A stretch of 57,441 nucleotides of DNA from an uncultured Methanosarcinaceae archaeon (lineage in GTDB: Archaea; Halobacteriota; Methanosarcinia; Methanosarcinales; Methanosarcinaceae): positions 1-57,441 of the forward strand of contig CAWJYV010000009.1 of assembly GCA_963847185.1 (NCBI GenBank), given 5' to 3'. The notes under the pieces were generated by a model that saw only the letters and a program-made list of their open reading frames with translations, ran no database searches and was not told the DNA's origin. The position numbers and the translations under genes were made by a program. Of the stretch, positions 1,981 to 23,808 are shown one piece after another (the first letter of the stretch is position 1; every line of letters starts with the position of its first letter).

Positions 1981-2064
1981 GGCACCTGGGTATTGGGAAA
2001 TGAGAATATGGGAGGGGGGTTATAATACAAAATTTAAAAAGGTCTTTATATAATCCCAAGTGCC
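1981..2064 (-). ncRNA. Candidate C-rich-loop small RNA, copy 1
   Basis: Minus strand GGCACUUGGG...CCCAGGUGCC closing stem, C-rich interior, TATA at ~2087-2096, U-rich tract downstream. Confidence 0.65.
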
Positions 2065-2186
2065 AATCTATTAAACGATTTGAAGATATATATAATTAAA
2101 GAGTCAGCGTTTATTCAGAAAGTAATATCAGGCGACTGTATAACATTCAGAAAAGAATTCTTAAATTAAAAAATGAATATACAACA

Positions 2187-2347
2187 TCTTCTTGAGCGAA
2201 ACGAAAAGGACGCCATACTGTTGAGATTACATCATAACTCTCAACAAATCTTCTAACAACTACCAAAAAATCTGCTATTTTCTGTGAGCCCGAAGTTGAA
2301 TTGGATGTCGAAAAGGACCGCATACTCCAGAGGAGCAATTTGGGGAA
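2187..2347. repeat. Palindromic REP-like repeats, degenerate copies b and c
   Basis: TCTTCTTGAGCGAAACGAAAAGGA... and GAAAAGGACCGCATACTCCAGAGGAGCAATTTGGGG resemble copies a and d. Confidence 0.65.
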
Positions 2348-2361
2348 AACAAATATGAGTA

Positions 2362-2447
2362 GGCACCCGGGTGTTGGGGAGTTGGGGGGTGTTTTGGGGG
2401 GTTATTAAAAAGAGTTTAAAAGGTCTTTAATGACCTGCCCAGATGCC
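2362..2447 (-). ncRNA. Candidate C-rich-loop small RNA, copy 2
   Basis: GGCAUCUGGG...CCCGGGUGCC stem with two G-U pairs; TATA at ~2471-2480; upstream region conserved with copies 1 and 3. Confidence 0.65.
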
Positions 2448-2574
2448 CAGTACCTTAGTGGAATCCATGGTATATATAATTAAAGGGTAATTGTTTATTG
2501 AAAAAGTAATATCAAGAGACTGTATTGTATTGATGACAGAGTTTCCAAAACGAGTATAAGATTAGTTGACTATA

Positions 2575-2672
2575 TCCTCTTGAGAGAAGCGAAAAGGACC
2601 CTGTGCTGTTGCGATTATATCGCAACTCCCAGAAAATCTCCGATTTCCTGTGATCCCGGAGCGGAACTCGAG
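2575..2672. repeat. Palindromic REP-like repeat, copy d
   Basis: Nearly identical to 4126-4231; contains hairpin GTTGCGAT-TAT-ATCGCAAC. Confidence 0.85.
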
Positions 2673-2762
2673 AAAGTAGCAAAGTTATATACGTACCCAA
2701 GTTTTCTATAAAAGATTGCTCTATATCACGCCACCTCTATGAAATTAGCTGGAGTAGAACAA

Positions 2763-3689
2763 ATGAATAAGAATAAAAGATCAAAGTTTATTGTTTTGCT
2801 TTTAATGATCCTATTTTTTGGGATAGTGCTTTTTCCGGTGGCAAGTGCCACTTCGAAAGAACCAGTCACTGGGAAAGAAGAGAACGAACAGAAATCTGTT
2901 GATGGTTCACAATGGAATGAATGGAGACATGCCCATATTGTGGAAGTTGAAGTGACAACAGTTTATGATTACAAAAAAGATGGAACGCTCAAAATCACTG
3001 AAACTTATTCTGGAGAGAAGCTTAAAGGTAAATTTAAGATAGATAAACTAACAAGGTCTCAGACTTTTTCAGTCTCTGACGCAAAAGAGATCGCTCTTAG
3101 TACCGAAAGCGAGAGCTTGAGACTGAAGCCAGGAGATCGGAAAGAATTCGTGACCCAAAAATCTACAGTGCTTACAACTAGCGATGATCCTTATGAATGG
3201 TGGGCCAGTACTTCTTTAACTTCTCTCACCTACCCCCAATGGACTTACTCAAAGCTTACCTCATTATATAAGACTTATTACGAAGTGGCAGACCCCATAA
3301 ACCTTCTATGGGAACATAACAGCCTGAAGACAGTTAAAAGTTTAATCTTTAATAAAAAATGGGTTGATAATCCTGTAGAATACACCCATTATATTCCGTA
3401 TCCTGATGGAAGCTGGGTTGCTGGAGACGGAATGGCAGATAATAAATACAGAATTCTCGGGGGCTATCATCTACGGCTCTGGGAGCTTCCAGATGGAAAC
3501 GTAGTTTCAAACGCCCACCATGATGACAATGTTTTCGTCGTCCCTGGACATCAGGTAGATGGATACGAAAACGCAGAAGCCAAAGTTGCAGGATTTTTCG
3601 GGACCGCAAATGGAGCATGCTGGCTAGATAATGTGTACTACAGTGATTACTATAATGCCCGTAATGATGGCTCAGCAACACTTTTCTGA
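2763..3689 (+). CDS. Secreted/surface hypothetical protein
   Basis: Long ORF; K/R-rich N-terminus, hydrophobic stretch and ASA signal-peptide-like site; GGAG upstream of ATG 2763 (alternative start 2739). Confidence 0.75.
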   Translation: MNKNKRSKFIVLLLMILFFGIVLFPVASATSKEPVTGKEENEQKSVDGSQWNEWRHAHIVEVEVTTVYDYKKDGTLKITETYSGEKLKGKFKIDKLTRSQTFSVSDAKEIALSTESESLRLKPGDRKEFVTQKSTVLTTSDDPYEWWASTSLTSLTYPQWTYSKLTSLYKTYYEVADPINLLWEHNSLKTVKSLIFNKKWVDNPVEYTHYIPYPDGSWVAGDGMADNKYRILGGYHLRLWELPDGNVVSNAHHDDNVFVVPGHQVDGYENAEAKVAGFFGTANGACWLDNVYYSDYYNARNDGSATLF

Positions 3690-4125
3690 GAATTTAAAGT
3701 AGTGTTGTTCCCAAATTTTGCAGGATTATTTGTGGGATTAAGGTCAGTAGCTTCCTGAGGACCCATTGACCTCAATCCCCAATTGACGGGTCAAATTTTC
3801 CCTTACCAGTTTTATTTACTATTTCTACATTGACCCATTGATCTACATCCCGAAGTTACTGGTTCAATGTGGATGTCTACACTGTCATTTATCGGTTCCA
3901 AAGTGAAACTCGAGTAACTCAGTTTGGGAAGTTTTGCCTTCTAATAAACACGTTTGGTGCCATAGTCTTTAATTCCACCGAGCGAACGCTCGGCCCGATC
4001 CTAAAAGTCCGTTTAAGATACTAAGGATATTATTCCTGCTAAAATCAGTTCATTAATTTGGGCCGAAAGTTGCCGAAAAATAAAAATGAAGAAAATAAAA
4101 GTTATGACTCTTCGCCAAAAGTTTG

Positions 4126-4310
4126 TCCTCTTGAGAGAGCAAAGCGAGTGAAAAGGACCCTGTGCTGTTGCGATTATATCGCAACTCCCAGAAAATCTCC
4201 GATTTCCTGTGCTCCCGAAGCGAAACTCGGGATTCTAAACTATAAATTAGTCTGCTTGAGCGAAGCGAAACAGACTTCGTGCTCCCGAAGCGAAACTCGG
4301 GTGGCGAAGC
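4126..4310. repeat. Palindromic REP-like repeats, copies e and f
   Basis: 4126-4231 matches 2575-2672; 4251-4310 repeats GTGCTCCCGAAGCGAAACTCGGG. Confidence 0.85.
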
Positions 4311-4354
4311 GAAATAATGGGAAAAAGAACTGGTGAATATAGTATATGGGGGGT

Positions 4355-4437
4355 GGGCATCCGGGTATTGGGGAGTTGGGGAGTTGGGGGGTATTAAAAA
4401 GAGTTGAAAACAAGTCTTTAAACCTTTCCGGATGCCC
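4355..4437 (-). ncRNA. Candidate C-rich-loop small RNA, copy 3
   Basis: Perfect GGGCAUCCGG...CCGGAUGCCC stem; loop has repeated CCCCAA; TATA at ~4459-4470. Confidence 0.7.
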
Positions 4438-4562
4438 AGTACCTTAGTGGAGTTCATGATATATATAATTAAAGATTAACCGTTTATTGAGAAAGTACTA
4501 TCGAGTGACTGTATAGTATTGCTCGCAGAGTCCCAATCCAAACACAAATGGATCGTGATAAG

Positions 4563-4627
4563 TCCTCTTGAGAGTAGCGTAAAGGACTGCGTACTCCCGA
4601 GGTGCAATCCAGGAAGCGGAAATTGGG
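4563..4627. repeat. Palindromic REP-like repeat, copy g
   Basis: TCCTCTTGAGAGTAGCGTAAAGGACTGCGTACTCCCGAGG, similar to copy a. Confidence 0.75.
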
Positions 4628-4711
4628 TGCAAAAACAGTTATCATGTATTGAGATATATAATAAATAATCACGAATAACGGTTAATCCGACCACAAACAG
4701 TAGCTGATTTA

Positions 4712-5455
4712 TTGGCAAAAGAGGAATGTGTAAAGTTTCCACCTGGCTCATATCAGGCTCTTCATGAAGGCGTCTGCTACAAAATAGACCCTGAAAATGA
4801 CATAGTTGAAATGACGCAAAGATTGAATTTCAAATACAGCCCTGAGAGTAAAGAAGAAGCTTTTAGTCTACTCAATAAACTTGGAGCACAAGAAGTCCAG
4901 AAAAGAGTCAAATTATTCTCAAAACTCCTGATCATCTCAATATTATTATTTATATTCCTGATAACTTTCCCAACTGAGTTACCCGGAAAATTCGAAGCTT
5001 TTCGATCTTTGGGAAAATTTCTAACGGTCACTTCAGAAATTGCTTTTCTCTATATGTTTGGTCACTACAAAGGCATGATGAATTATTATAAAGATTCGCA
5101 TTGCAAAAAATGTGGGAAATATTTTGTTTTCGAAGAATTTCATGCTCCTCTGGTTAAAGAAGAAAGCAGAATCGACTCTTACATAAAAACCTTCAAAAAA
5201 CATTGGCGTTGTAAAAACTGTGGATATGAAGATATAAAAGTCGAGTCCAGTCCCATAAATCACCATTACGAGAAAAAACAGCACGATTTAAAAGAATGTA
5301 CCTGTGAGGAATGCGGGCATGTACTGGAAGAGTACAGGAACGCTGATGTACTGAGTCACACTGTCCTGAAAAAAATAAGGTATTTTAAATGCAAATACTG
5401 CGGTTATCACGAGATAAGACTCCACAGAAAAATTGGATATTATCGAAAAAAATAA
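4712..5455 (+). CDS. Membrane protein with four CxxC zinc-ribbon motifs
   Basis: Two hydrophobic segments, then CKKC, CKNC, CEEC, CKYC; start codon uncertain. Confidence 0.7.
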   Translation: MAKEECVKFPPGSYQALHEGVCYKIDPENDIVEMTQRLNFKYSPESKEEAFSLLNKLGAQEVQKRVKLFSKLLIISILLFIFLITFPTELPGKFEAFRSLGKFLTVTSEIAFLYMFGHYKGMMNYYKDSHCKKCGKYFVFEEFHAPLVKEESRIDSYIKTFKKHWRCKNCGYEDIKVESSPINHHYEKKQHDLKECTCEECGHVLEEYRNADVLSHTVLKKIRYFKCKYCGYHEIRLHRKIGYYRKK

Positions 5456-5609
5456 ACTCTTGGATGTCTGCATTTTCTTCTTTTGAAGTTCAGATTAATC
5501 CACCATTGTCCCTGTCTTTATTTCTTTGCAGAAGTTGCCAATTAAAAGACAACCGTAAAATCCAGGAGGGGAAATTGTATACGCTTATTTTATTTGGGGA
5601 CAAAAGAGT

Positions 5610-6158
5610 TTAAGGCTGAAGAATCATGTTCGTCGAAATGATATAAAGTGCATTCAGTACTGCTTCCCCTACAAAGACTCCCAGAAGGCACTTCAAAACA
5701 TGTACCCTTAGCGTTGATCCAACATAAACAATTAAATCCGTTGGTACCAGGGGAAAAAAACTCCAACCAACTATAATCGGTAACTCTTTGTCTTCAAGTC
5801 CTGATCTTATTCTCTGAACATACTTTCCATATTTGGTCTCAAAATATGCGGCAAAACCAAGGTATCTTGAAAAATAATAAACGATTGTTGATGAAGCTAA
5901 TATTCCTGCCATGTTCACTATAAAAAGTTCCACAGGGTCAAAAATTAAGATTCCTGCAAGCAGAAGAGGGGTTGAAGGAATCATGCTCAAACCTCTAATT
6001 GATAGAAGAAGGAAATAAACACCTAGAGCAAGATAGTACTCTTCGGATAGGTCCTCCAGGAAGAGGATATTTATTTTTTCAGGAAAGAAGAGGTATACTG
6101 TTACTCCGCCTATTATCAAGAGTATCCAGAAGCAGAAAGCAAGTTTTTTTGGGTTCAT
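5610..6158 (-). CDS. VTT/DedA (TVP38/TMEM64) family membrane protein
   Basis: IPSTPLLLAG, YYFSRYLG and FPLVPTDLIVY motifs; hydrophobic. Confidence 0.85.
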   Translation of the reverse strand: MNPKKLAFCFWILLIIGGVTVYLFFPEKINILFLEDLSEEYYLALGVYFLLLSIRGLSMIPSTPLLLAGILIFDPVELFIVNMAGILASSTIVYYFSRYLGFAAYFETKYGKYVQRIRSGLEDKELPIIVGWSFFPLVPTDLIVYVGSTLRVHVLKCLLGVFVGEAVLNALYIISTNMILQP

Positions 6159-6167
6159 TTTTATCCC

Positions 6168-6623
6168 TCATTCCTCTTTTCTGATCCACTCTCTGCCTTT
6201 TTCCTTATGGAATTCTTCCCTTTTTTCATCAACCCAGTGTGCTTTTCTGGTACTTTTGTAGACCCGGTCGGTATACTTGTTTATACAATAAAGTGTTGAA
6301 GTGGAGTTGTCTTCGGGATCTGGGATGTCATAAGTGACCATAAGAAACTCATCTTTTTTATTAGCAGTCCCATAATGGCTCTCAAAAAGCTCAATAAAAT
6401 CATCTTCCTGGCTTAGTGAGATATTGAAATATTCTAAGGCAAATTCTTCTTTCGTATATGACTGAAACTTAAAGTCATGAGGATCAGTTCCACTGCTCTT
6501 AACTAGTAAATTGACGTGCTTGGTCAGGAAAAAAGGATGAGAAACAATTAAAATACCTGACAAAAAAATAAGCAAAGAAAGTGTCAAAATTGTATACAGT
6601 GTAATTTTAAGGTATTTTTTCAT
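6168..6623 (-). CDS. Hypothetical membrane-anchored protein
   Basis: MKKYLK followed by one TM helix; directly upstream of the VTT gene. Confidence 0.6.
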   Translation of the reverse strand: MKKYLKITLYTILTLSLLIFLSGILIVSHPFFLTKHVNLLVKSSGTDPHDFKFQSYTKEEFALEYFNISLSQEDDFIELFESHYGTANKKDEFLMVTYDIPDPEDNSTSTLYCINKYTDRVYKSTRKAHWVDEKREEFHKEKGREWIRKEE

Positions 6624-6812
6624 TTTTCGTTCCCAGTCTAAATTAGTATTGTAACAGTTATAAATATAATGCATTTTTTGAATACTAATTAAATAAATTA
6701 GATCAGAGCCGTTTTTCCCTGCCTTCTTGCTTATTTCCACTATTGAATTAGAAGGTTTACTTCTGAGATACTTTTATTATTTAGTACAGTCTAATGTATA
6801 AAATATCTTAGA

Positions 6813-7217
6813 GTGATGATCATGCAATGGTATGCCGGCTTTTTCAGGAGATTTCTAGCCTCAACAATAGATATTTTCGTAATTATCCTTTTTATTTGGT
6901 TTATCCAGTTAATTTCGGGTATAACAATAGCTGGATCTTTTTTCTACTTCCTGGGTTTCCTGTTTGGATGGATTTATTTTGTTTTTCAGGAGAGTTCGAC
7001 CAGGAAAGGGACAGTGGGTAAGCAAGCTATGAACCTCATTGTAACTGATCTTTACGGAAACAAAATTTCCTTTAATCAGGCAACAAAGCGCTTTGTGATG
7101 AAAATTCTAGCTGTAATTCCTCTTTTTGCAGGATTTTTGCCAATTTTTTATACTGAAAAAAAGCAAACTCTTCCAGATATTGTAGCAAAGACTGTAGTAT
7201 TTCTTCAAGAAGATTAA
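6813..7217 (+). CDS. RDD family protein
   Basis: YAGFFRRFLASTID, TVGKQAMNLIV, KKQTLPDIVAKTVV. Confidence 0.9.
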   Translation: MMIMQWYAGFFRRFLASTIDIFVIILFIWFIQLISGITIAGSFFYFLGFLFGWIYFVFQESSTRKGTVGKQAMNLIVTDLYGNKISFNQATKRFVMKILAVIPLFAGFLPIFYTEKKQTLPDIVAKTVVFLQED

Positions 7218-7443
7218 ACGCAGTTGAAGATTTTTGTTTTAATTTTTTTAATTTTACAATGACTAATTCCCGGTTTCCTCTTTCATTTATTGCTGGTTTC
7301 TTTTCACCATTATTTCTTAATTCTCTTATCCTCTTTTAGGAAATCTTATTTAATTTCTTCAAAACAGATACTTTTTTTTATTATGAAGTCCTAATTTACA
7401 TGCAGGAAGTTATTTGCCGCCAAGCATCTAAAGGACGATTGTT

Positions 7444-8064
7444 ATGTCTATTTCTTTTGACCAGCAAATTTCAATTCAGAGTAAAACGGCAAGTTTTCAG
7501 AGTATCCTATCGGGTTATTCTCCTACTATTTCCACTTGCCCTAGACCTGTGGTAGATACAAAGCTTTTTCTTGACATGGATGGAGTTCTTACGGATTTTG
7601 TGGGCGCCTCTGAGAAACTAGAAAAAAATATGACTCTCTGGTATGACAGTGATAAAGAACTTTTCTGGAAACATATTGCATCCGCAGGCCCTGAATTCTG
7701 GTCAGAGATGCCGTGGATGACAGGCGGTATAGAACTTCATAGATTCCTAAAAGATTCCGGTTTTTGTCCTACAATCCTTTCTGCACTCCCGAATCCAAAC
7801 CGAAAAAAAGCTTTAGCCAACGCAAGGAAAGGAAAAATCCAGTGGCTCAGGAAAGAACTCGGAACTCAATATGCAGAAAATGCAATTCTCTGTTTCCGCC
7901 CTGAAAAAGCTCTCCAGTCCGGGATATCAAGGATCCTGATTGATGACAACTCCGAAAATATCCTTGAATGGGAAGAAGCAGGGGGAACAGGAATCCTCCA
8001 TAAAAACTCAAACAGAACAATCAGGTGTTTAAACCGGATTCTTGAAATGGAACAGCAACTCTGA
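7444..8064 (+). CDS. HAD-superfamily 5'(3')-deoxyribonucleotidase-like protein
   Basis: LFLDMDGVL motif I, ILIDD motif IV, WEEAGGTGILH. Confidence 0.75.
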   Translation: MSISFDQQISIQSKTASFQSILSGYSPTISTCPRPVVDTKLFLDMDGVLTDFVGASEKLEKNMTLWYDSDKELFWKHIASAGPEFWSEMPWMTGGIELHRFLKDSGFCPTILSALPNPNRKKALANARKGKIQWLRKELGTQYAENAILCFRPEKALQSGISRILIDDNSENILEWEEAGGTGILHKNSNRTIRCLNRILEMEQQL

Positions 8065-8251
8065 AATTCGCGTATCTTCAATTGCCTTCTCTCTTTTTAA
8101 GTGTTGGCCCTTACATGTCTGGTCTAAGAACCTGGGATTTTGCTTCCGCCTGAAAATAAGCTACGATAGGAGACAACCATTAACTGAATTATATTAGGCG
8201 GAAGCACCATAGAATAAAATACTATTTTCTTATTTATACTCATTTATCTTA

Positions 8252-8458
8252 ATAACAAACCTTAGCTTTACACTATAACAAACCTTAGCTTTACACTATA
8301 ACAAACCTTAGCTTTACACTATAACAAACCTTAGCTTTACACTATAACAAACCTTAGCTTTACACTATAACAAACCTTAGCTTTACACTATAACAAACCT
8401 TAGCTTTACACTATAACAAACCTTAGCTTTACACTATAACAAACCTTAGCTTTACACT
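8252..8458. repeat. Tandem repeat, 9 exact copies of 23 bp
   Basis: (ATAACAAACCTTAGCTTTACACT)x9 with no spacers, between convergent genes. Confidence 0.95.
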
Positions 8459-8674
8459 AAGGACAGTTTATTTTCATCTCTTCCATGAAAAAAGAATTCA
8501 TCTGAAGGCTCTTTTTAAGGAAACTTCAAAATTTTTTCATATAGTGGGCATTAGGATTTAAAAAGAGTAAGTCTCTCTACTGGAATAAACAATAATTACT
8601 GGTCATAATTCCATTTTTTGCATTCACAGACTCAAATTCACTTAATTTTATTACTTTGAATTACTTTGATATTG

Positions 8675-9178
8675 TCAGTAAATGCTTACACCTTTAACCG
8701 AAGGCAAGTTAAGGATTTTGTCTACAAGGTCTCCGGGCACTTTTTGGTCAGTAATAATTGTAAGCCTTGGATTGTCAGTAAGGAAAGGATCGTCCGATAC
8801 AGCCTGGCGAATGCTTACATTATGTCTGGAAATCAGGCCTGCAACTTCCGCAAGTATGCCCACATGTGCGGCATCTTCCGGAATGATTATAATTACACCT
8901 AAGCCGAGAGAAGGAGCTACATCTTTGAGAAAAGGAATGGAATGAACATTTCTAAAAATCGTGCTCAGAAGTTCGTCTGAGACAATAGACTTTGTGGTTG
9001 CGTCAACCACACGTCTATCAACGCCGGCTTCTTTTGCAAGCTGCGTATGTGCGATTTCAATGTTTCCTGAAGTGACTTTTCCATCTTCGTTTACCTGAAA
9101 CCCACGTTCAAAAAGCAATTTAAGAACTTTTGCCTGCGCAGGATATTTTTCAAATTTTTTGAGTAATGTTTGCCACAT
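8675..9178 (-). CDS. ACT-domain regulator of amino acid metabolism (archaeal)
   Basis: HTH-like segment LAKEAGVDRRVV, then ACT domain (GILAEVAGLISRHNVSIRQ). Confidence 0.8.
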   Translation of the reverse strand: MWQTLLKKFEKYPAQAKVLKLLFERGFQVNEDGKVTSGNIEIAHTQLAKEAGVDRRVVDATTKSIVSDELLSTIFRNVHSIPFLKDVAPSLGLGVIIIIPEDAAHVGILAEVAGLISRHNVSIRQAVSDDPFLTDNPRLTIITDQKVPGDLVDKILNLPSVKGVSIY

Positions 9179-9337
9179 ATAAATTAAAGTTTAAACCTGG
9201 TCCCCTGATATATAGTTTCTTATTATATTCTATTATAGTTTGATGAAATATTCTTGAATAGTTATTTTGAGTTTCATTTGAGTTTCATTATTGAGTACCT
9301 GCGTTAATTTGAAGTACCTTCAAACACGAAGCTTTAC

Positions 9338-10165
9338 ATGGAATTTTCCGCCTCAGGCAGTAAGCAAGAATCCGGAAGAACAAATTACCAGTTCCTTCTT
9401 ATTGCAGGCCTCAAGAAAGAAATAGAAATGGCTCGCAAGCTTGATCCTGAAAAACTTGCAGCTGAAATCCGAAAAGCAGGTTTCTCATGCCAGCAATGCG
9501 GAAAGTGCTGCAAACGGGCTTTTGGAGACAACAGGGTAGTTCTCATTCCCTCAGAAATCGAGAAAATCCGAGAGTATACAGCCCTCTCAAAACTTGAGGT
9601 TGCAGGACCTTTTTTGCCAGAACCCCCCCATAATGAATTGGGGGAAGACAAAGAAAACGGTAATGAAAGTATTTTCAAAGCTTCCAAAGAAAATGAAAAT
9701 GAATTTTCTGAAACTCCTGAGTTTTTTGAACTCCTCTCTGAAGATATCGATAGTGAAGGTAATATCCATGCTTTTGGGTGGATGCTCAGGAGGAAGAAAA
9801 ATGGAGACTGTATCTTTCTTGAGAAAGGTACGAGCAAATGCAGGACCTACCCTGTACGCCCGGCGCTCTGCAGAACCTATCCTTTTTATATCGAAGAACT
9901 GAAATTGTATACCTGCGAATGCGAAGGTCTGGGATACCCAATTTCCATAGAAGAAAGCCTAAAACTGGCAGAAAGCCTAAAACTGGCAGAAAGCCTCCTT
10001 TCCAGGTATATTTCGGAACTTGAGGATACGCTTGTTATGTATGAAAAATTCACAGACTTCAGGAGAGAAGAAAAAGGTATGGAGTTTGCAAAGGAAAATC
10101 TGGAAAAAGGCACATGTACTTACATAGTTCACGACAGCACAGGAACGACCAGAATTATTGAGTAA
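9338..10165 (+). CDS. YkgJ family CxxCxxCC Fe-S/Zn cluster protein
   Basis: FSCQQCGKCC, CIFL, CRTYPVRPALCRTYPF. Confidence 0.85.
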   Translation: MEFSASGSKQESGRTNYQFLLIAGLKKEIEMARKLDPEKLAAEIRKAGFSCQQCGKCCKRAFGDNRVVLIPSEIEKIREYTALSKLEVAGPFLPEPPHNELGEDKENGNESIFKASKENENEFSETPEFFELLSEDIDSEGNIHAFGWMLRRKKNGDCIFLEKGTSKCRTYPVRPALCRTYPFYIEELKLYTCECEGLGYPISIEESLKLAESLKLAESLLSRYISELEDTLVMYEKFTDFRREEKGMEFAKENLEKGTCTYIVHDSTGTTRIIE

Positions 10166-10312
10166 CAGAACATGAAAAGCTGTAAAAAACCCTGATGAAC
10201 CCTTTTTAATTTTAAGCTTCTTTGTCGTTTCATGTCCTAAAAAGAGTTTTTATCTTTTCATACCAATTCCCATCAATTAAATTTATTTATGAGAAGGAGC
10301 CAGTTATTCCCC

Positions 10313-11608: not shown

Positions 11609-11664
11609 AAACCTCCTGTTTATTTTTTGGGATATTTTTGCGCATTAAATAAAAAGGTGTTTAG

Positions 11665-11979
11665 ATGCCGGATGCTGATTTATCAATTTTGAACAGAGTA
11701 TACGAGATCATTCTGGACAGGAAATATAACTACGACGAGCAATCATATGTCTGCAAGCTTCTGAATCACCGCAAGGGTATGAACAAGATTCTTGAAAAAG
11801 TAGGAGAAGAATCAATTGAAACTATTCTTGCAGTCAGAAACGAAGACCACGCAGAAATTGTATCTGAAAGCTCGGATTTAATCTTCCATCTTCTTGTACT
11901 CCTTGCTGCAAATAATATTACTCTCGATGAGATTGCAGCCGAGCTCAGGGCCCGGCATGAAAGCATGAAAAGAAATTGA
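11665..11979 (+). CDS. hisE: Phosphoribosyl-ATP diphosphatase
   Basis: [22 protein letters not shown]. Confidence 0.93.
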
Positions 11980-14376: not shown

Positions 14377-14620
14377 TTTCTTATAATTTGTCTTAAATAA
14401 GTTAATTCAATAATTGTACTCAGAATCAGATTCAGGAACGATATCCAGCGGTTCAGAGCTTTAATTTAATTTTTGGAGATATCATCACCTTTTTCAAGCT
14501 TTGAACGATATCTATCAAGCTCTGTAACTGTTTATCAACTTATTAGAGCTTGTCATCAGGATATTAAAACCCATCTCCAGTAGTTTATAGTTATCTTCAG
14601 CTTTTTAGCCTGATTTCTGT

Positions 14621-15559
14621 TTAGATTATTCCAAACTGCATTAAAATGGCCAGGAAAACTAGTATAAAACCTGTTGTAAGTCTTATTTCAACTCTCCATT
14701 TTTCCCTGAATTCGGTAACCTTTTTGGGACTCAGTCCAAAAGCAAGTAAAAGCCCAAGGCATATTACAGGAAGAAGAAGGCCGATATTGTAAATTCCCAT
14801 ATACATGGTTCCTCTTATTATATCGGTCTTTGTCGCCAGAATACTCAGGAGAGAAAGGTAAATTGCCCCCACACAGGGAGCTTTAACCAGAGAGAACATC
14901 CCCCCTGAAAGAAAAGACAGAATCAAAAAGTTTTTCTCGCTCATTTTCCCCATAAAGTTCTTCAGGAGTTCGGGAGTCTTGAAGGTCGACTTTGCATGTT
15001 TATTCAGCCAATATGCATCATAGATATGCCAGAAACCAAGCAGAAAAGTCACCAGGATTGCGATTTCGCTAAAAGTTTCCCGGATTTCAGGCAGTAAACT
15101 AACAACGCTGAAGATGCCCATCCCTGCAAGCATATACATGGCAAAAATCCCTGCTGAAAAACCGCAAGTTATTTTGAGCATCTCTTTTCTCCTTCCATGC
15201 TGAACAAGGACAATTGAGGCAAGAAAAGCCATTACTGCTAGCAGGCACGGATTAAAACCCGCAAGAATACCTGCTGCAAAGAGTAAAAAAGGGCTTATTT
15301 TCTCGATATGCTTATTTTTTCCTTCTCTACTTGCTGCAAGTGGAAGCAAAAGTCCTTCAGCAAAAAATAAAGGAGAGGCACCGATAGTTTCCGTCAGAAA
15401 AATATTGTCAGGATCTGCCATCCCTCCGTAGAAAGAGCCTTTCAATCCACTCTTAGCTAACGCAGCTGAACCGGAAACAGGACTGAGCAACAAAGAAATA
15501 CATATCAACGCAAAAATTCCTTTGTTCAGGAACGTTGAAAGCATACTTTTCTTTTTCAT
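14621..15559 (-). CDS. CcdA/DsbD-like cytochrome c biogenesis membrane protein
   Basis: AGFNPC and KAPCVG paired TM cysteines; multiple TM helices. Confidence 0.8.
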   Translation of the reverse strand: MKKKSMLSTFLNKGIFALICISLLLSPVSGSAALAKSGLKGSFYGGMADPDNIFLTETIGASPLFFAEGLLLPLAASREGKNKHIEKISPFLLFAAGILAGFNPCLLAVMAFLASIVLVQHGRRKEMLKITCGFSAGIFAMYMLAGMGIFSVVSLLPEIRETFSEIAILVTFLLGFWHIYDAYWLNKHAKSTFKTPELLKNFMGKMSEKNFLILSFLSGGMFSLVKAPCVGAIYLSLLSILATKTDIIRGTMYMGIYNIGLLLPVICLGLLLAFGLSPKKVTEFREKWRVEIRLTTGFILVFLAILMQFGII

Positions 15560-15982
15560 GTCCTTTTTCCCAAATTATTTTAGTGTGAATATCCACAGTA
15601 TTTTTTGTCTTTTCCTATTTTCCTGTTAGACAAGAAAATTCATCAACTGATAACAATTACTTTTTCGAATTTTTTATAAATAATATTCTTTTGCATATAT
15701 TAATAGATTTTTATAATATACTGATTAAAATAACATTAATTTCTCTAAAGCTGGCAACGGTTATGGATATATATAATCCTTGTGGCAAAGCGCCTGACAA
15801 TTAAACAAAAAGGATAATTGCGAACTTATAATAGTACTAATAGTCACTTTGAAATTAAGATAAGAAATAAGAAAAAGAAGAAAGGGGAAAAGCAGAAAAA
15901 GAAGAAAGTAGGAAAAGCAAAAAAGAAATAAAAAAAATAAAGATTTTTCTTCCCTATAATTTTTACTACAATTTTTCTTTTT

Positions 15983-17095
15983 TCAGAGTACTTTTTCCAT
16001 GATGCTAAGAGCTTTTTCAATATCTTTCATCGAAGCTGCATAAGAAATTCTTATGTATCCATCACCCTCGCTTCCAAAGGCAGTCCCGGGAACAACAACA
16101 ACACCATTTGAGATCAATTTAGAGGCAACTTCTGCTGAATTCGCAACTTTCGGGAAGGCGTAGAAAGCTCCTTTGGGAAGAGCACATTCCATTCCGAGCT
16201 CATTCAGTCTTTTTACTAGTACATCTCTTCGTTTTTTGAATTCTTCCCGCATGGAATTAACCGAGTCTTTAGGCCCTGTAACTGCGGCATAAGCGGCTTT
16301 CTGAGCGACTGAATTGGCACAGGCCTGCATGTACTGATGCACCTTGAGCATCTGGCCTGTATACTCCTTTCTAGCTGCAACATACCCGAGTCTCCAGCCG
16401 GTCATAGCATAGCTTTTGGATGCTGCATTTACAGTAATTACATTGTCCGAATAACTTGCAGGGCTTACATGCTCTCCTTCGTAGATGAAATACTCATAGA
16501 CTTCGTCCGAAATAATGGTTATATTGTGGTCTTCTGCAATCTCTGCAAGGGCTTTAATATCTGCCCTACTTGCAACCGCACCTGTGGGATTTGAAGGAGA
16601 GTTGAGTATAATGGCTCGAGTCTTCGGAGTTATTTTTTCAAGCACAGCCTCAGGCTTCATAGTAAGGTCATCTGCTAAAGGGACACTTACAGTTTTGCCA
16701 TTCAGAATTTCAGTCAGCGCGTTATAGGAAACAAATCCGGGATTTGAGATAAGGACTTCATCTCCCGGATTGAGGAGGGCTGCAAGGGCAATAGCAAGAG
16801 CTTCCGAGGCACCGGATGTAACAATGATTTCCTGAGGGGAAACCGAAAATCCATTTTCCTCTTTGAATTTTACACTCAGGGCCTCTCTGAGTTCCGGAAT
16901 TCCCGGACCTACAGTATAGCCTGTAAAACCTTCATTTATGGCGTTTATAGCCGCTGCTTTTATATGTTCTGGAGTATCAAAATCTGGCTGCCCGAGTCCA
17001 AGGTTAATGGCATCTGAGCCTGCAGCTTCAAAAATCTTTCTAATTCCGGATGTGTCTATTCTGGCCACATTCTCTGAAAATTTTATCTCCTTCAT
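15983..17095 (-). CDS. PLP-dependent aminotransferase class I/II (aspartate aminotransferase-like)
   Basis: NSPSNPTG, SDEVY, SKSYAMTGWRLG; GGAGG upstream of ATG 17095. Confidence 0.92.
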   Translation of the reverse strand: MKEIKFSENVARIDTSGIRKIFEAAGSDAINLGLGQPDFDTPEHIKAAAINAINEGFTGYTVGPGIPELREALSVKFKEENGFSVSPQEIIVTSGASEALAIALAALLNPGDEVLISNPGFVSYNALTEILNGKTVSVPLADDLTMKPEAVLEKITPKTRAIILNSPSNPTGAVASRADIKALAEIAEDHNITIISDEVYEYFIYEGEHVSPASYSDNVITVNAASKSYAMTGWRLGYVAARKEYTGQMLKVHQYMQACANSVAQKAAYAAVTGPKDSVNSMREEFKKRRDVLVKRLNELGMECALPKGAFYAFPKVANSAEVASKLISNGVVVVPGTAFGSEGDGYIRISYAASMKDIEKALSIMEKVL

Positions 17096-17162
17096 ATTTA
17101 GCCCTCCTGTGTTCCTGTTGTCTCTGAAAAATACCCACTCATTTCTGGTGATTTTTCGGGCC

Positions 17163-17777
17163 TTATTCGATATTCGTATGCCTTGATTTAAGTTCGGCTT
17201 CAGAAGCACCTGTAAGTGTTATTAGCTGAGCGATTATTGAGTCCAGAAAAACCATAGAGGTAATTTCAAAAGAAGTACCCAGGGGAGGTAGGTTTCTGTA
17301 TTCCCCACGCATGCTTTTTTCAAGGTAGCCACCTGCGTCATGGTCGTTTTTACTCTTGCTCGGAAGAACCATAGCAATATCTGAGATTCTGCCGAGTGTA
17401 GATCCTTTTTTGGAGGTGACAGTTATAAGGGTAGAACCTATGTCTTTTACTATTTTCCCAAGGTCAGCTATGGAACGGGTTTCCCCCGACCCTGAGATCG
17501 CAATCACAACATCAGGAGGCCGAACAGCAGGAGTTGTGGTTTCACCAACCACATATACACTGAATCCCAGGTGCATAAGCCGCATAGCAAATGCTTTGGC
17601 AACGAGCCCTGATCTCCCGGCTCCCATAACAAAGATCCTATCACTGTCCATGGTTTTCTGGAGCATAGCCTTTATGGCTTCGATGTCAAGCCTGTCAATG
17701 ACCTCATTGAGGTTTTCCACGATCAGTCTCATCGATAATAATACATCTTCACAATCATTTATCTGAGTTTCTTTCAT
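17163..17777 (-). CDS. hxlB: 6-phospho-3-hexuloisomerase
   Basis: GAGRSGLV, FAMRLMHLG, VGETTTP, ISGSGET, RHTNIE. Confidence 0.93.
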   Translation of the reverse strand: MKETQINDCEDVLLSMRLIVENLNEVIDRLDIEAIKAMLQKTMDSDRIFVMGAGRSGLVAKAFAMRLMHLGFSVYVVGETTTPAVRPPDVVIAISGSGETRSIADLGKIVKDIGSTLITVTSKKGSTLGRISDIAMVLPSKSKNDHDAGGYLEKSMRGEYRNLPPLGTSFEITSMVFLDSIIAQLITLTGASEAELKSRHTNIE

Positions 17778-17998
17778 ATGAGTTCTCCAAAAAACATTGG
17801 GTTAAATAAATGGCTGTTTATAATAGTCGATTAGAGCATTATCTACCTCTACATAGATATAAAAATAACTCCTGAAAACTCCTATCTCAAAATCCTCTCT
17901 TGATACCCTTTTTTACTTCAATCAAAGCTTATTGTGAATCTCAGGAATAAGTACTGGAAGTTAATTTTGTCTCACTACAGTGCTGGTAGTCCGCCTTT

Positions 17999-18520
17999 TC
18001 ACCGATTTGATTGTGGTTCAGATTTATCGGTCTTATAGTTTATAGCTTTTAGTTCCCAGTTTTCGATATTGTTTTTGAATTCCTGATAAAGCCTCTGGAT
18101 ATCGCAGTCACTTCCGTTCCAGTAAAAGTCCTTACGCGCTTCTCCTTTTCGAAGCTCTTCAAGTATATGTTTTGACAGGTGGAAAAGGGCTTTTCTATTG
18201 GAAAAAGGAATACTATAATTTACGCGATAACCGCCGGCTGTTTTTCCATAGGACACCAACGTATATCCTCTACTTTCGTACTCCGTAATCTCGTCAAAGT
18301 TACATATCATTTCAAACTCGTGAACCGTAGACTGATCTATTTTCGAGATTCCTAGGAGTACCTGCGCTATAATATAATCAGGAACCTTCCGTCCAAACCA
18401 TACTGCCATTTTTCCGTAGGTACAAATAACATTGACGTCATTTCTACCCATCTCAAAGGAACTGAGGGACTGAGGAGGGAATATTTTTACTTCCAGGTCT
18501 TGGGTCTTCTGGGCACACAT
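17999..18520 (-). CDS. Hypothetical protein, third gene of the GTPase/DUF2073 operon
   Basis: 173-aa ORF 12 bp downstream of the DUF2073 gene. Confidence 0.65.
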   Translation of the reverse strand: MCAQKTQDLEVKIFPPQSLSSFEMGRNDVNVICTYGKMAVWFGRKVPDYIIAQVLLGISKIDQSTVHEFEMICNFDEITEYESRGYTLVSYGKTAGGYRVNYSIPFSNRKALFHLSKHILEELRKGEARKDFYWNGSDCDIQRLYQEFKNNIENWELKAINYKTDKSEPQSNR

Positions 18521-18532
18521 TGCTTCACTTCG

Positions 18533-18901
18533 TTACTTACTTGCAGAGACAAGTGCACTGATCAGGTTTCGATCTTTTTTAAGGGTTTTGAGCTGGTTTG
18601 CAGGCCCTATAACTGTAAGTCTTTTGTTGCTTTGTTTTTTAAATAGCTTTCCTAGCAACGAAGCGTCCGCATTTGCAGGATAACTCTGCATTTCAATACC
18701 TGAAAACACATCAGGTTGAATGGCTGACATTGTCATCTCTATTAGCTTTGCTTCCTCCATAGGGTTAAGACCCTTTTCAAGCACCAGGATTTTGCCTTTC
18801 CGTACCTCATCAATTATGTACCGGACTTTTTCCATTGAAGCCATTTGCGAGATTCTGGCTTCGGATATGAGATCAAGTTGAATTCCCTGCATGTCAATCA
18901 C
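18533..18901 (-). CDS. DUF2073 protein (OapB/ArvB-like)
   Basis: MEKVRYIIDEV, LEKGLNPMEEAKLIEMTM, LTVIGPAN. Confidence 0.85.
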   Translation of the reverse strand: MIDMQGIQLDLISEARISQMASMEKVRYIIDEVRKGKILVLEKGLNPMEEAKLIEMTMSAIQPDVFSGIEMQSYPANADASLLGKLFKKQSNKRLTVIGPANQLKTLKKDRNLISALVSASK

Positions 18902-19539
18902 CCGAACTGTTTTGCCAGAGCTTCATAAAATGCATCCATTCCTACTCCTTCAAGAGCCGAAACGGGCACCATGGGGTGCTGCGGGAAAGCTTCTTTTATG
19001 ACGGCTGGATCTGCATCAGGAAGATCTACCTTATTTGCTACGATCAAAAGCGGCAGATTTCTGGCTTCCATGTTTCCTATTACAGTTACATTGACCTGGG
19101 TATAGGGATTTTCAGTGGAATCCATAACCAGTATAACACCGTCAAGATCATCGAGCCACTTGACAGCTTCAATAACGCCTTCTGTAGCTTCTTTAGATCT
19201 TTTCTTCGACTCAGAGTCACTCATTCCCTGTTCCATAAAATCATGGAAGTCAATTTTCGTGGCAAGCCCTGGAGTGTCTACGATATCAAGGGATATTGTG
19301 TGTCCGTTAGCTGCGATAGTGACCCCATTCTTTCTTTTCGCATGTCTTGTTTCATGGGCTATATGGGAAACCGAACCCATTGCTTCTTCGGCTCCGACCC
19401 AGTCCTTAAGGATCCGATTACTAAGGGTTGTTTTGCCGGCATTTGGGGGACCGTAGATTCCTATACATGCTCCTTTTTTCTTGAACAGTTTACTAAATAT
19501 TTTTGAAAAGCTTACCTTAAATCGTTTTATCATACTCAT
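18898..19539 (-). CDS. Era-like small GTPase (OapA/ArvA-like)
   Basis: GPPNAGKTT, HETR, DTPG, NKVD, SAL; overlaps the DUF2073 gene. Confidence 0.88.
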   Translation of the reverse strand: MSMIKRFKVSFSKIFSKLFKKKGACIGIYGPPNAGKTTLSNRILKDWVGAEEAMGSVSHIAHETRHAKRKNGVTIAANGHTISLDIVDTPGLATKIDFHDFMEQGMSDSESKKRSKEATEGVIEAVKWLDDLDGVILVMDSTENPYTQVNVTVIGNMEARNLPLLIVANKVDLPDADPAVIKEAFPQHPMVPVSALEGVGMDAFYEALAKQFG

Positions 19540-20159
19540 GGCTTCCCTCCATTGGGAAAAGCATAAAACCTAAAATAACTCGGATTGCTTTCCTTTATGG
19601 GTTGGTGTTGTAATGATCTTTTTATCTAATTGATCCATGCATATAAATAATTTCCATTTGTTACACTGCGGGAATTAGAAGTGCTTTTTTTCGTATCGGC
19701 ATAACTGGATATAAATAGAAATTATAAACATTTCTATGGAAAGATAGAAAGTGCCTCCGTGAAAATAACACCTGAATATAAATAAATTACTTCTATCGCC
19801 CGATTTCCTGAACATCTTCAATAAAAAGTTTTTAAGTAGAAAATTTTCAGCTCTTCCCTAACTCATCTCATTTATACTAAAACTTTATGCGTTTATTGAT
19901 GTTCAGTACTTTCCTTTATAATTTTTCCTATTTTTATTCACACAATCTTAAAAATATAAATGACTTTTAGAAGAGAAAATTTATTTAAAAGAAAAATTTT
20001 CGATGTTATTCAGATAGAACTTATTCTCTTTTTCCCGGAAATCATTATATTCATTCTTACTGACCTTATTCCTGCTTTTTCCGGAAACTATTATGTCTAT
20101 TCTCATTAATGCCTATTCTCAACTGACCTGACCTGTTCGTATTTTCCAATCAATTAGAT

Positions 20160-21155
20160 TCATTTGTTTACAATTGCTGAATTTATTGCGATTTCAGCTA
20201 TATTAGAGCCAAGATCTCCTATTCTGGCGAGACTATCCACAACTGTCCCAAGAGAGATCATGACCTCATAAGATTCCAATCTAAGGATAGATGCGCGCAC
20301 TTCCCCTACTCTTGCATGCATTTCTTTAACGTTATTTATTACTTTGTTTGCAAGAGAGGTATCTGCAGCAAAAAGTGCCTCAACTGACTGCTTCACCAAT
20401 TCCATGTAAGCATTATTAAGAGTCTCTACATCTTCAATAACATTGTCTTTAATAGGCTGTTGCAATTTCGAAGCAACATTTGCTATTCTCTGTGAATGGT
20501 CTGCTATCCTCTCAAGAGGACTTGCGGCCATTCTAAAATCATGATATTCCTCAATGCTTGTCTCTGCAGAATCCGGCATTCTTCCTCCGCAAAGGATAGA
20601 GCGGAACTGTTTGGAAATCAGGAGGCATAACCTGTCAACTTCATCATCTCTCTGGCTAACATCAAGGGCAAGGTCATGGTCAGCCGTTCTAAGGGCTCTG
20701 ATCGCATCTTTTTGCATGGACCCTGCAATAAGGAACATTCTATGTACCCCTTTTTTGATAGGAAGCTCATTCGGGTTCAGAAGATCCTGGATAACTACGA
20801 AGTTTGAGCTCTCTTCAATAATTTCAGGGCCTATCAGTTTGTAGCAAACTTTCCTGATTATCTGCTTTTGTTCTGCCAGTATTCTTTTTGACGAAAACTC
20901 GATTCTGTCATATCCATAAAGGTATGCCGCGATAATATCTCTCTCTAATGCATTTACTTCATAACCGGTAACATCCATTCTCTTGGTTTTAATTTCCCGT
21001 TCTTCCAGAATCGGGTCTATCAATAGTTTTCCGTCTGGCTGTGCATAAAGAGCAACCCTAACGCCTGTTTTGATACCGACTTTCTCAGCCCATTGTTTAG
21101 GAAGAGAAATAATATAAGTAGATCCACCTGTCTGCTGTACTTTTCTGGTCTCTAT
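20160..21155 (-). CDS. phoU: Phosphate uptake regulator PhoU with N-terminal AbrB domain
   Basis: Two PhoU repeats (DDEVDRL, ERIADH, RIGDLGSNIAE); frame extends upstream without a stop to (I)ETRKVQQTGGSTYIISLPKQW beginning at ATA 21155. Confidence 0.85.
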   Translation of the reverse strand: METRKVQQTGGSTYIISLPKQWAEKVGIKTGVRVALYAQPDGKLLIDPILEEREIKTKRMDVTGYEVNALERDIIAAYLYGYDRIEFSSKRILAEQKQIIRKVCYKLIGPEIIEESSNFVVIQDLLNPNELPIKKGVHRMFLIAGSMQKDAIRALRTADHDLALDVSQRDDEVDRLCLLISKQFRSILCGGRMPDSAETSIEEYHDFRMAASPLERIADHSQRIANVASKLQQPIKDNVIEDVETLNNAYMELVKQSVEALFAADTSLANKVINNVKEMHARVGEVRASILRLESYEVMISLGTVVDSLARIGDLGSNIAEIAINSAIVNK

Positions 21156-21397
21156 ATCGATTCCCCGTTTTTGGTTAATAAGCGTAAATCTGAAACAATT
21201 AATATATAGAATTACTTATATTGGATATTCATTAATATATAGATACGCCTATTCTATATATTGAACTCAACTTTTTTATTTATATCCACGAGTTTATTCT
21301 TTTTTATAGATAAGTTTCAGAGATCTTTACCGGAGCACGTTGGGGCCTGCTTCGGAAGGAGGTCGCAAAAATTATTAAATAGCAAAACGTTCTGGAC

Positions 21398-22282
21398 GTG
21401 ATGACATTTGAAGGGTACGCCTGCGCGTCGGGGGCAGGAACCATAATAAATGCTATTGCTACCTGGAAAGGTGCAGCATTCGGGATAGATTTGAAGACCT
21501 TTGCAAAAGTTAAACTTTCAGAAAGTGAAACCGGAATTTCAGGTTTTATTGAAGAGATGCCTGAAGGAGATACCCATCTTATAGAGCGCTGTGTTGAACT
21601 GGCCCTTGAGAAATTCGGAATTGAGCTTGGTGGTACAATAAAGACCAGAAGTGAAATCCCTCTTGCAGGCGGGCTCAAGAGTAGCAGTGCCGCAGCAAAT
21701 GCTTCAGTCCTTGCAACCCTCAAAGCAATTGATGAGACTCTCCCTCCTCTTGAGATAGTTAAACTTGGGGTGAAAGCTGCAAAAGAAGTGGGAGTCACTG
21801 TAACAGGTGCCTTTGATGATGCTTGTGCTTCTTTTTTCGGAGGAATTGTTGTCACTGATAACCGGGAAATGCAGCTTATCAGACGCGAAGAATTCGACTC
21901 GAAAGTCCTGATATTTGCCCCTTCCAGAAAAGCTTTCAGTGCAGATACGAATGTGAAAAGATCTCGATTGATTGCTCCGTATATAGAAATAGCCTACGAG
22001 CTTGCCCTGAAAGGTGACTACGAACGGGCCATGACGCTAAATGGTTTCCTTTACTGTGGAGCCCTTGGATTTGAGACTGAGCCCATACTTCGAGCTCTTG
22101 AATGTGAGGTAAAAGGAGTGAGCCTTTCTGGAACAGGTCCCTCCTATGCAGCACTTGTGAAAGCTGATCAGATAAAGGAGCTGAAATCTGCCTGGGAAAG
22201 CTGCGGAGTTGAAGGTAAAGTCATAGAAACCACTATAACCAATAGAGATGCAATATCTTTACAAAGGGAGGGTTCTGCTTGA
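21398..22282 (+). CDS. aroK: Archaeal (GHMP-type) shikimate kinase
   Basis: IPLAGGLKSSSAAANA, TGAFDDA, LSGTGPS. Confidence 0.92.
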   Translation: MMTFEGYACASGAGTIINAIATWKGAAFGIDLKTFAKVKLSESETGISGFIEEMPEGDTHLIERCVELALEKFGIELGGTIKTRSEIPLAGGLKSSSAAANASVLATLKAIDETLPPLEIVKLGVKAAKEVGVTVTGAFDDACASFFGGIVVTDNREMQLIRREEFDSKVLIFAPSRKAFSADTNVKRSRLIAPYIEIAYELALKGDYERAMTLNGFLYCGALGFETEPILRALECEVKGVSLSGTGPSYAALVKADQIKELKSAWESCGVEGKVIETTITNRDAISLQREGSA

Positions 22283-22566
22283 GCGAACTTGAAGCTGTCC
22301 GCAAAGAAATTGAAGAAATTGATAGGGAAATCCTTGCCCTCATTGATAGAAGAGTCAATCTGGCTGAAAAGGTGCTTGAATCAAAAAGAATAAATGGAAC
22401 TTCGATAAATGACCAGAAGCAAAATGAGATTGTAGTCAACAGGGCCCTAAATGCCGCAACCGAACTCAATCTTGATGTGGGGTCCGTGAAGGCCATTTTT
22501 GAAATTCTTATCAGGATGAGTATCGAACGTCAGAATGAGCTGAGTGGCAAAGGAAACCTGCCCTGA
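22279..22566 (+). CDS. Chorismate mutase (AroQ type)
   Basis: [22 protein letters not shown]; overlaps the aroK stop. Confidence 0.88.
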
Positions 22567-22585
22567 CGTCCAAGAGGAACAAAAA

Positions 22586-22978
22586 ATGGTCGACATCTCA
22601 ATAATTATGGGTTCTGAATCCGACAGATCAATTGCCAATCGTGCAATATCCGTACTTGAAAAAAACAAATATACTTTCGAAGTAATGGTTATTTCCGCTC
22701 ACAGGAACCCGGAAGAACTCGACAATTACGTTAAAAACACCGATGCAAAGGTTTTTATCACAATTGCAGGTTTATCGGCAGCCCTCCCGGGCGTTGTGGC
22801 TTCAAGAACAAAAAAGCCTGTAGTAGGAGTCCCTGTAAGCGCAAAGCTTGGAGGACTCGATGCCCTCCTTTCTATAGCCCAGATGCCACCCGGAGTACCC
22901 GTAGGTAGCGTAGGAATCGACAACGGGGCAAATGGTGCATACTTTGCCCTCAGAATTCTGGATTTAATTGATAGCTAA
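22586..22978 (+). CDS. purE: N5-CAIR mutase / AIR carboxylase catalytic subunit
   Basis: [30 protein letters not shown]. Confidence 0.93.
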
Positions 22979-22989
22979 TACGTTTAAAA

Positions 22990-23086
22990 AAACCAAAGTT
23001 TTCTAATAAACTTAAAGAAACCAAAGTTTTCTAATAAACTTAAAGAAACCAAAGTTTTCTAATAAACTTAAAGAAACCAAAGTTTT
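22990..23086. repeat. Tandem repeat, about 3.5 copies of 28 bp
   Basis: AAACCAAAGTTTTCTAATAAACTTAAAG at 22990, 23018, 23046 and partial at 23074. Confidence 0.9.
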
Positions 23087-23287
23087 TTCTTTTCTCGCCG
23101 GATTAGATTCCGGAGATTCTTTTTTGAACCGGCTCCCAAAGTATTCCTTATTCGGGTTAATTCCTTACTCAAGCTTTTTTATTCAGGATATTCTTTTTCT
23201 CTCAGGTTGAGTTCGATATAAAAGGGTGAATAAATTGAGCTTCGTGCTAGAGAAGGGGATTATCTTTTAAAAAAGGAAATGAGATAA

Positions 23288-23375
23288 GGCATCTGAGTAT
23301 TGGGAGTGGGGGGGGGGGGAATAGGGGGTAAAGGATTGTCTGAGGTTTACAATAGAAGAGGGTTTCTCAGATGCC
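23288..23375 (-). ncRNA. Candidate C-rich-loop small RNA, copy 4
   Basis: Perfect GGCAUCUGAG...CUCAGAUGCC stem, long C run, CCCAAUA before the 3' arm, TATA at ~23398-23407, U-tract downstream. Confidence 0.65.
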
Positions 23376-23808
23376 ATATCCATTAATATGGCACAAGATA
23401 TATAAAAATAAAGGTATACTGTTATTTAGTGGGTGTATTAAACAGTACCCTTATTTTTTAAAGAAGAGATTTGAAAAGCAAACTGTAAGATATCTTGAAA
23501 TAGCTTCTTCTTAATGAAAAAGAGCTTTCATAATAGAATTAGACATGTGAAAAGTAAATGAAAACGAGTAATTAGAATGTGAAATAGAAAAAAAATTAAA
23601 ACCCATATCCTGCAGTATTTTTTTGAAAATCACTGTTTTTTCTGATATATTTTTTGAAAAATATTAAAATCATTTAAAATCAAAATGAAACTCGATGAAA
23701 ATTAAATACTATAATTTATATTATTGCAAGTTTTAAAAAAGGAGTGTAAAAACCCTAATTTGAAAATGAGTGGAAAATGGAGGCTAGATCCACTCATAGA
23801 GGTAATAA

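Follow-up and report, generated by a model that had tools for sequence, protein, structure and literature searches.

The window analysed here is a stretch of 57,441 nt from an uncultured Methanosarcinaceae archaeon (GCA_963847185.1, contig CAWJYV010000009.1, positions 1 to 57,441), and four loci on its minus strand carry a small RNA (sRNA) unit in which a 10-bp terminal helix encloses a C-rich loop. These four loci are members of a larger sRNA gene family conserved across this methanogen order. The original prediction had claimed four such loci, and all of them were present at 1981-2064, 2362-2447, 4355-4437 and 23288-23375, with the 10-bp arms exactly as quoted. Copy 1 (1981-2064) pairs GGCACUUGGG with CCCAGGUGCC around a loop with CCCCCCUCCC and UUUCCCAAUA, and it is the class I copy that has diverged furthest from the others. 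The arms of copy 2 (2362-2447, also class I) are GGCAUCUGGG and CCCGGGUGCC, with two U·G pairs, and its interior holds a GGUC/GACC hairpin plus three C-blocks. Copy 3 (4355-4437, class I) has the arms GGGCAUCCGG and CCGGAUGCCC and the loop CCCCCCAACUCCCCAACUCCCCAAUA, and copy 4 (23288-23375, class II) joins GGCAUCUGAG to CUCAGAUGCC around a run of 12 C followed by ACUCCCAAUA. The G-poor, C-rich interior whose last letters ahead of the 3' arm are CCCAA(U/C)A, another feature proposed at the outset, was seen in all four.

Covariance-model matches covered each locus with a few flanking nucleotides: 1975-2070 for copy 1 (90.7 bits), 2356-2453 for copy 2 (106.2 bits), 4350-4442 for copy 3 (95.5 bits) and 23282-23381 for copy 4 (74.8 bits). 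Folding of the four loci singly, with 200 shuffles each, gave minimum free energy (MFE) z-scores from -2.4 to -4.5, including -2.38 for copy 1, whose MFE fold closes the terminal stem, -3.73 for copy 3 and -4.45 for copy 4. In the MFE folds of all four loci, the terminal helix is closed and the C-rich half is open. Identity with a tRNA or tmRNA was rejected, as ARAGORN detected 0 genes in the window.

Each copy is preceded by a TATA-rich box on the minus strand, TTTAATTATATATA or TTTATTTTTATATAT, ending about 21 nt before the stem, in line with the box that had been predicted upstream. For copy 1 the box lies at 2086-2100, ending 21 nt upstream of the stem; those of copy 2 (2471-2484) and copy 3 (4459-4473) were read from the sequence and are conserved among class I, and that of copy 4 is found at 23398-23412. 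Around copies 1-3, the conservation extends over about 70 nt upstream of the stem, promoter included. None of copies 1-4 is followed by a gene on the same strand. The U-rich tract expected after the stem was clear for copies 1, 2 and 4, but weaker and more distant (at about +33) for copy 3.

The family was first described as having four copies, which turned out to be an undercount. Three stem classes with at least 10 members in total were recovered from the source genome by covariance model, BLAST, regular expressions and a descriptor scan. Class I, of the GGGCAUCUGGG type, comprises copies 1-3 of the window and one copy on contig C1; class II, of the GGCAUCUGA type, comprises copy 4 and one copy on C6 (68810-68883, plus strand); and class III, of the GAGCGGG type, comprises one copy on C7 (22631-22691, plus strand) and three on C8, one of them single (754725-754798, plus strand) and two in tandem (997726-998077, minus strand). 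C6 also bears a degenerate copy with few C runs at 68436-68515 on the plus strand. The fifth copy, on C1, and the weaker members on C6 and C7 were obtained by BLAST and a covariance model from the close copies, while the three C8 members were missed by the filtered model search and came from loop-word BLAST, the descriptor scan and regular expressions. A sequence-only nhmmer profile was too insensitive for the class III copies. The C-rich scan also returned a (CCCAAA)n microsatellite at C4:165778-165911 on the minus strand, which was discarded as unrelated to the sRNA family. Across the family, the RNA gene measures about 70-105 nt.

The closing helix carries the strongest evidence for an RNA. 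Of the stem cells in the five close copies, 96.4% are paired, versus 24-47% when the partners are slid. Extending the set to 38 hits (36 distinct) gave an 11-bp helix with 96.9% of cells paired and two-sided changes in 10 of the 11 pairs. With 85 homologues (71 distinct) and 766 cells, 97.0% were paired, again with two-sided changes in 10 of 11 pairs, against 24-47% paired in the slid-partner control of the same set; these pair counts come from alignments fitted to the model and from sequences that are related, and both circumstances inflate the statistics. Cells with a two-sided change in the 71 distinct sequences numbered 169, compared with 42.3 ± 6.4 in shuffles. None of the 500 shuffles matched the observations in paired percentage, covariation score or number of cells with a two-sided change; as many as 10 pairs with two-sided change arose in 5 of the 500. 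Entire arms are exchanged between classes with pairing kept (GGGCAUCUGGG, GGCAUCUGAG, GAGCGGG and GAGCGAG). The covarying stem anticipated from four copies is therefore borne out by the 71 distinct sequences.

The helix also tells which strand is constrained. Among the helix cells of the 71 distinct sequences, G·U occurs 54 times and A·C 7 times, and therefore the C-rich strand is the strand under pairing constraint. On the same asymmetry, a G-quadruplex RNA encoded on the opposite strand was rejected. In partition-function folding, the terminal helix had a mean probability of 0.97 and exceeded 0.8 in 69 of 71 sequences, and the last 30 nt of the loop had a mean paired probability of 0.09, lying below 0.2 in 62 of 71. 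The single-stranded C-rich loop of the original prediction agrees with this low predicted pairing and with the MFE folds, and the C-rich motifs are thus predicted to be held unpaired. The loop is 45-85 nt long, G-poor over its C-rich part and enclosed by a terminal helix of 10-11 bp, with a short C-rich tail after the 3' arm. Its 3' half holds two to four C-blocks, typically CCCCC(C)A ... (A/C)CUCCC(C)AA, and its conserved core reads UAACCCCC ... CCCC.ACUCCCCA.A.

The distribution of the family was followed in samples of the genomes of each taxon, so that absence outside the order holds for the searched genomes. The large searches used strict filters with 27 candidates scored per genome, and for that reason the copy numbers and the counts of matching genomes are undercounts. 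With the model built from five copies, 28 of 41 genomes matched; within the genus, the figure was 22 of 24. At E <= 0.001, the model built from 38 hits matched 73 of the order's 151 sampled genomes; by family (f1 to f6), matches were obtained in 21 of 48, 1 of 20, 26 of 27, 20 of 48, 0 of 1 and 4 of 6 genomes. Positive genomes of the order had from 1 to 8 hits with this model. In the class-level sample, 30 of 151 genomes matched and none of the 74 genomes of the largest other family did, while in the phylum-level sample 5 of 151 genomes matched, with no match in 136 genomes of 25 other families. Tandem arrays recur, with three hits in 3.3 kb in one genome (G086) and four in 7 kb in another (G119).

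Regarding the transcription unit, a TATA-like box at constant upstream distance was present in all 38 hits read. In 43 of the 61 distinct hits, the last TATA-like hexamer begins 26-29 nt upstream of the stem; of the other hits, most (14 of 61) show a further A/T-rich match nearer to it. Upstream of the box, the classes differ. Class II promoters (23413-23450 in the window, preceding the box of copy 4, and loci L050, L051, L054, L055 and L056) contain an imperfect inverted repeat, GTACTG, about 20 nt, then CAGTAT, just upstream of the TATA box; the repeat resembles a site to which a dimeric regulator would bind. The upstream block conserved in class I promoters differs from that of class II.

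A small-protein gene was considered as another reading. In most class I copies an ATG does follow the TATA box, and an open reading frame (ORF) at 4053-4457 overlaps copy 3. However, the frame of copy 2 ends after 13 codons, no ATG follows the TATA box of copy 1, and by reading, the class II and III upstream sequences have no such conserved ATG. Coding is unlikely because the class I ATG frames stop early or are absent in other copies, and the small-protein gene was rejected since its reading frame is not conserved.

The same holds for a non-functional dispersed repeat, that is, a MITE (miniature inverted-repeat transposable element) with terminal inverted repeats. The elements are multi-copy with inverted termini of 10-11 bp, and a short repeat that is truly dispersed occurs around copies 1-3. 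This repeat, of about 40-200 nt, flanks copies 1-3 at 1860-1960, 2575-2675, 4100-4310 and 4557-4630; it occurs in dozens of copies on nearly all contigs, some of them in tandem, and is an element separate from the sRNA unit. Against a MITE, the conserved unit reaches about 70 nt past the terminal repeat and includes the promoter, the changes in the arms are compensatory with the G·U to A·C ratio of 54:7, and syntenic orthologues are found across genera and families. A dispersed repeat or a small-protein gene is, taken together, a highly improbable explanation.

The synteny was clearest in two subfamilies. In 8 loci that represent two families of the order, a class II copy is found near an archaeal-type shikimate kinase gene (TIGR01920, E 7e-91), the two being separated by a purE-like gene in this genus. 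The class II copy and its conserved neighbour are oriented towards each other. In the window, copy 4 is flanked by the shikimate kinase/purE-like pair at 21398-22978 on the plus strand and by the end of a nitrogenase-like (Oxidored_nitro) operon at 23809-25158 on the minus strand. In all 11 loci (own genome plus 10), a pyridine-nucleotide-disulfide oxidoreductase homologue follows the short class III form on the same strand, at about 190-500 nt, and one stem pair of this short form has changed by compensation across these loci. Elsewhere, the neighbours vary and include pdxS-like, HepT-like, aldo-keto reductase and chaperonin genes and a gene for a 247-aa (amino acid) zinc-ribbon protein. Syntenic orthologues with otherwise variable neighbours are in keeping with functional RNA genes and not with a mobile repeat. 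The claim that these are paralogous, separately promoted, non-coding RNA genes is supported by their own TATA boxes, the upstream conservation, the covariation and the strand bias, and we consider it very probable that they are real, conserved RNA genes.

The constant position of the short class III form before the oxidoreductase homologue raises a different reading for it at least, in which promoter and hairpin would open a long 5' untranslated region that controls the downstream gene in cis. In the source genome no T-run directly follows this form, which favours a leader. Such a leader would not account for copies 1-4 and several others, which have no downstream gene on the same strand, nor for the class II copy that is convergent with its conserved neighbour, and the copies in tandem arrays each have their own TATA box. 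On the whole a cis-acting leader is considered improbable, with such a role possible for the short class III form.

Some neighbours were recorded in their own right. In six of the genus's loci (L039, L042-L045 and L064), all of one class I subfamily, a HepT-like ribonuclease gene of the toxin-antitoxin type lies about 300-650 nt from the sRNA. The 247-aa cysteine-rich, zinc-ribbon-like ORF (4712-5455, plus strand) is divergent from copy 3, and in 6 loci of two genera a homologue adjoins a class I copy; its Pfam zinc-ribbon hits all fell below threshold, and its Atlas match was an unnamed archaeal cluster. The interval from copy 2 to copy 3 holds a 316-aa ORF (2739-3689, plus strand) for which no Pfam or NCBIfam family was found. 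RNA-library contigs that are 90-99% alike cover 2730-3496 of this region, and the ORF may be a real, expressed gene.

Concerning known systems, the Rfam check proposed at the start gave 0 matches at the gathering score over the whole window. At E <= 10, the region 1900-4560 gave no match to the sRNA loci and two chance-level hits elsewhere. The family is apparently undescribed, being absent from Rfam and from the literature searched; the M. mazei sRNA catalogues and the sRNA41 sequence lay outside that search, and supplementary tables may list members. LhrC1-5 of Listeria and RsaE/RoxS of Firmicutes use unpaired UCCC/CCCC motifs that pair with G-rich Shine-Dalgarno (SD) regions. LhrC is multi-copy and partly in tandem, as are the arrays seen here. 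Unlike the present family, LhrC and RsaE/RoxS are bacterial, end in Rho-independent terminators and are not known to have an end-to-end closing helix, and with the Rfam models no sequence or structure match to them was found in the window.

Among archaeal sRNAs, sRNA41 of M. mazei (Buddeweg et al. 2018, Mol Microbiol) is reportedly about 120 nt long and said to act through a conserved single-stranded region. Two reviews state that it represses translation by occluding ribosome-binding sites (RBSs) inside polycistronic ACDS mRNAs (PMC5867862, PMC6560208). It resembles the present RNAs as an intergenic sRNA of the same genus, and here the RBS of an ACDS subunit belongs to the best sites predicted; sRNA41 is described as one gene, whereas the present family has at least 10 copies, three stem classes and an order-wide range. 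Set against the family by description only, sRNA41 may be a member or unrelated. In M. mazei sRNA154, loop 2 carries an anti-RBS sequence that masks an RBS, as reported in PMC5867862, and it is likewise an archaeal intergenic sRNA with an anti-RBS loop, as proposed here. It differs, however, in its two stem-loops, its expression is specific to nitrogen starvation, and it stabilises mRNAs as well (PMC5867862). No match to sRNA154 turned up, its sequence lying outside the comparison.

The loops were then compared with the starts of genes. The 2854 genes used were called crudely by a custom script and their 2851 starts are approximate. G-rich 6-mers complementary to loop words peak at -18 to -7 of these starts, with 365 and 413 per 6-nt bin versus 56-74 upstream, and canonical SD 5-mers peak in the same bins. 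Of 30 loop-complementary hexamers, 28 were enriched more than 2-fold at the SD position. Since the loop-complementary 6-mers peak at the SD, many RBSs of this genome are G-rich sequences for which the loops hold the full complement. CUCC or CCUC is present in 69 of 71 loops, compared with 53.2 expected from shuffles, which is a modest excess. The 3' end of 16S rRNA reads ...CACCUCCU... within ...GGAUCACCUCCUAAGCA. With each of the 10 copies, the RBS of the ACDS corrinoid subunit (CdhD+FeS-domain), GGGGGUG, ranked among the best 2% of predicted sites; its place was among the first 10 of 2852. The genome has one cdh operon, whose other genes have ordinary SDs as RBSs. The ACDS site is notable because M. 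mazei sRNA41 is reported to occlude the RBSs of ACDS mRNAs, and as a candidate site it gives a hint only.

From the exposed C-blocks and their complementarity to SD regions, we propose what seems the most likely mechanism. The RNA would start at or next to the 5' arm, and the terminal helix would join both ends of the molecule. The RNAs would act in trans, the exposed C-blocks pairing with G-rich SD regions of mRNAs and blocking the binding of the 30S subunit, while the terminal helix would keep the seed open and protect both RNA ends. Sibling copies, some of them in tandem, together with class-specific sequences upstream of the promoters, could provide redundancy as well as separate regulatory inputs. 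The sequences show a gene-like anatomy, conservation, covariation, the constrained strand, C-blocks predicted to be unpaired and complementarity that centres on the SD position; transcription, RNA ends, binding and regulatory effect are what we infer for the family. As a whole, the statement that this is a family of separately transcribed sRNAs acting as anti-SD regulators, mechanism included, seems to us evenly balanced between right and wrong.

In addition to the inflation of the pair statistics, the approximate gene starts, the modest CUCC/CCUC excess and the constant gene after the short class III form, all described above, several results speak against anti-SD regulation by separate transcripts. 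Using RNAduplex, five loops were paired with -35 to +15 of the 2851 starts and the energies equalled those of intragenic windows; for copy 3, windows at <= -14 kcal/mol numbered 323 at starts and 312 within genes. The top-ranked predicted targets were functionally unrelated and shared no theme, and any pyrimidine-rich loop complements purine-rich SDs. The anti-SD-like loop of the original prediction is consistent with the complementary 6-mers that pile up at the SD position and with the CUCC/CCUC excess, but gains no support from duplex energies, which are no better at starts, or from a theme among the targets. A run of at least five T within 30 nt downstream occurs in 23 of 61 distinct members, and one of at least four T in 46 of 61. 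Class I loops have an internal U5 run upstream of the C-blocks, which could be an archaeal termination signal. Three metatranscriptome contig sets from one study cover the dispersed repeats and the ORF region at 2730-3496, not the sRNA loci, and are uninformative either way.

The main rival to anti-SD regulation assigns the C-blocks to a protein: possibly together with an Sm/Lsm-like U-run, they would titrate or recruit an RNA-binding protein. Such RNAs exist, as CsrB/RsmZ titrate CsrA and the pyrimidine-rich loops of Y RNAs bind proteins. The two to four near-periodic C-blocks per RNA would suit a sponge, as would the U-run of the CUCUUUUUAAU type conserved in many members, and the lack of a specific mRNA target that stands out points the same way. 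The shortest conserved form, however, has a single C-block and would make a poor sponge. No partner gene is consistently adjacent, the neighbours differing between subfamilies, and we know of no C-rich-RNA-binding protein of these archaea, which also counts against a sponge. Y RNAs measure about 100 nt and pair their 5' and 3' ends into a terminal stem that encloses a pyrimidine-rich internal loop, and the present family resembles them in all three respects. Their partner, Ro60/TROVE (PF05731), had 0 matches in the 99.8%-complete genome, in a search whose controls matched in 2 of 14 genomes, and Y RNA gave no Rfam hit in the window. The absence of a Ro60 (TROVE) partner gene from the genome led to the rejection of a Y RNA/Ro ribonucleoprotein identity and counts against the sponge as well, which is on the whole unlikely.

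An extension of the anti-SD reading is more tentative. The family might consist of order-wide "super anti-Shine-Dalgarno" siblings, whose all-G·C pairing with G-rich SDs would out-compete the 3' end of 16S rRNA, which needs G·U there, so that translation of messages with G-rich SDs would be tuned, each class answering to a different promoter input. This is possible, and we regard it as doubtful.

To our knowledge, few archaeal small RNAs have known functions. Most of them have been described as poorly conserved (PMC4152357). The present family is set apart by strong covariation, 1-8 model hits per genome, presence in several families of the order and absence from Rfam. The order that carries it accounts for much of biological methane formation, and in the genetically tractable Methanosarcina the family is a well-defined candidate for post-transcriptional control that is easily deleted or tagged. 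If the C-blocks mask G-rich RBSs, the "sibling C-rich sRNA" principle of Firmicutes would extend to archaea, and sRNA41, the single studied case, might gain a family context. If the super anti-SD reading is true, the family would form a global layer of translational control in methanogens and their methane-oxidising relatives, undescribed as a family.

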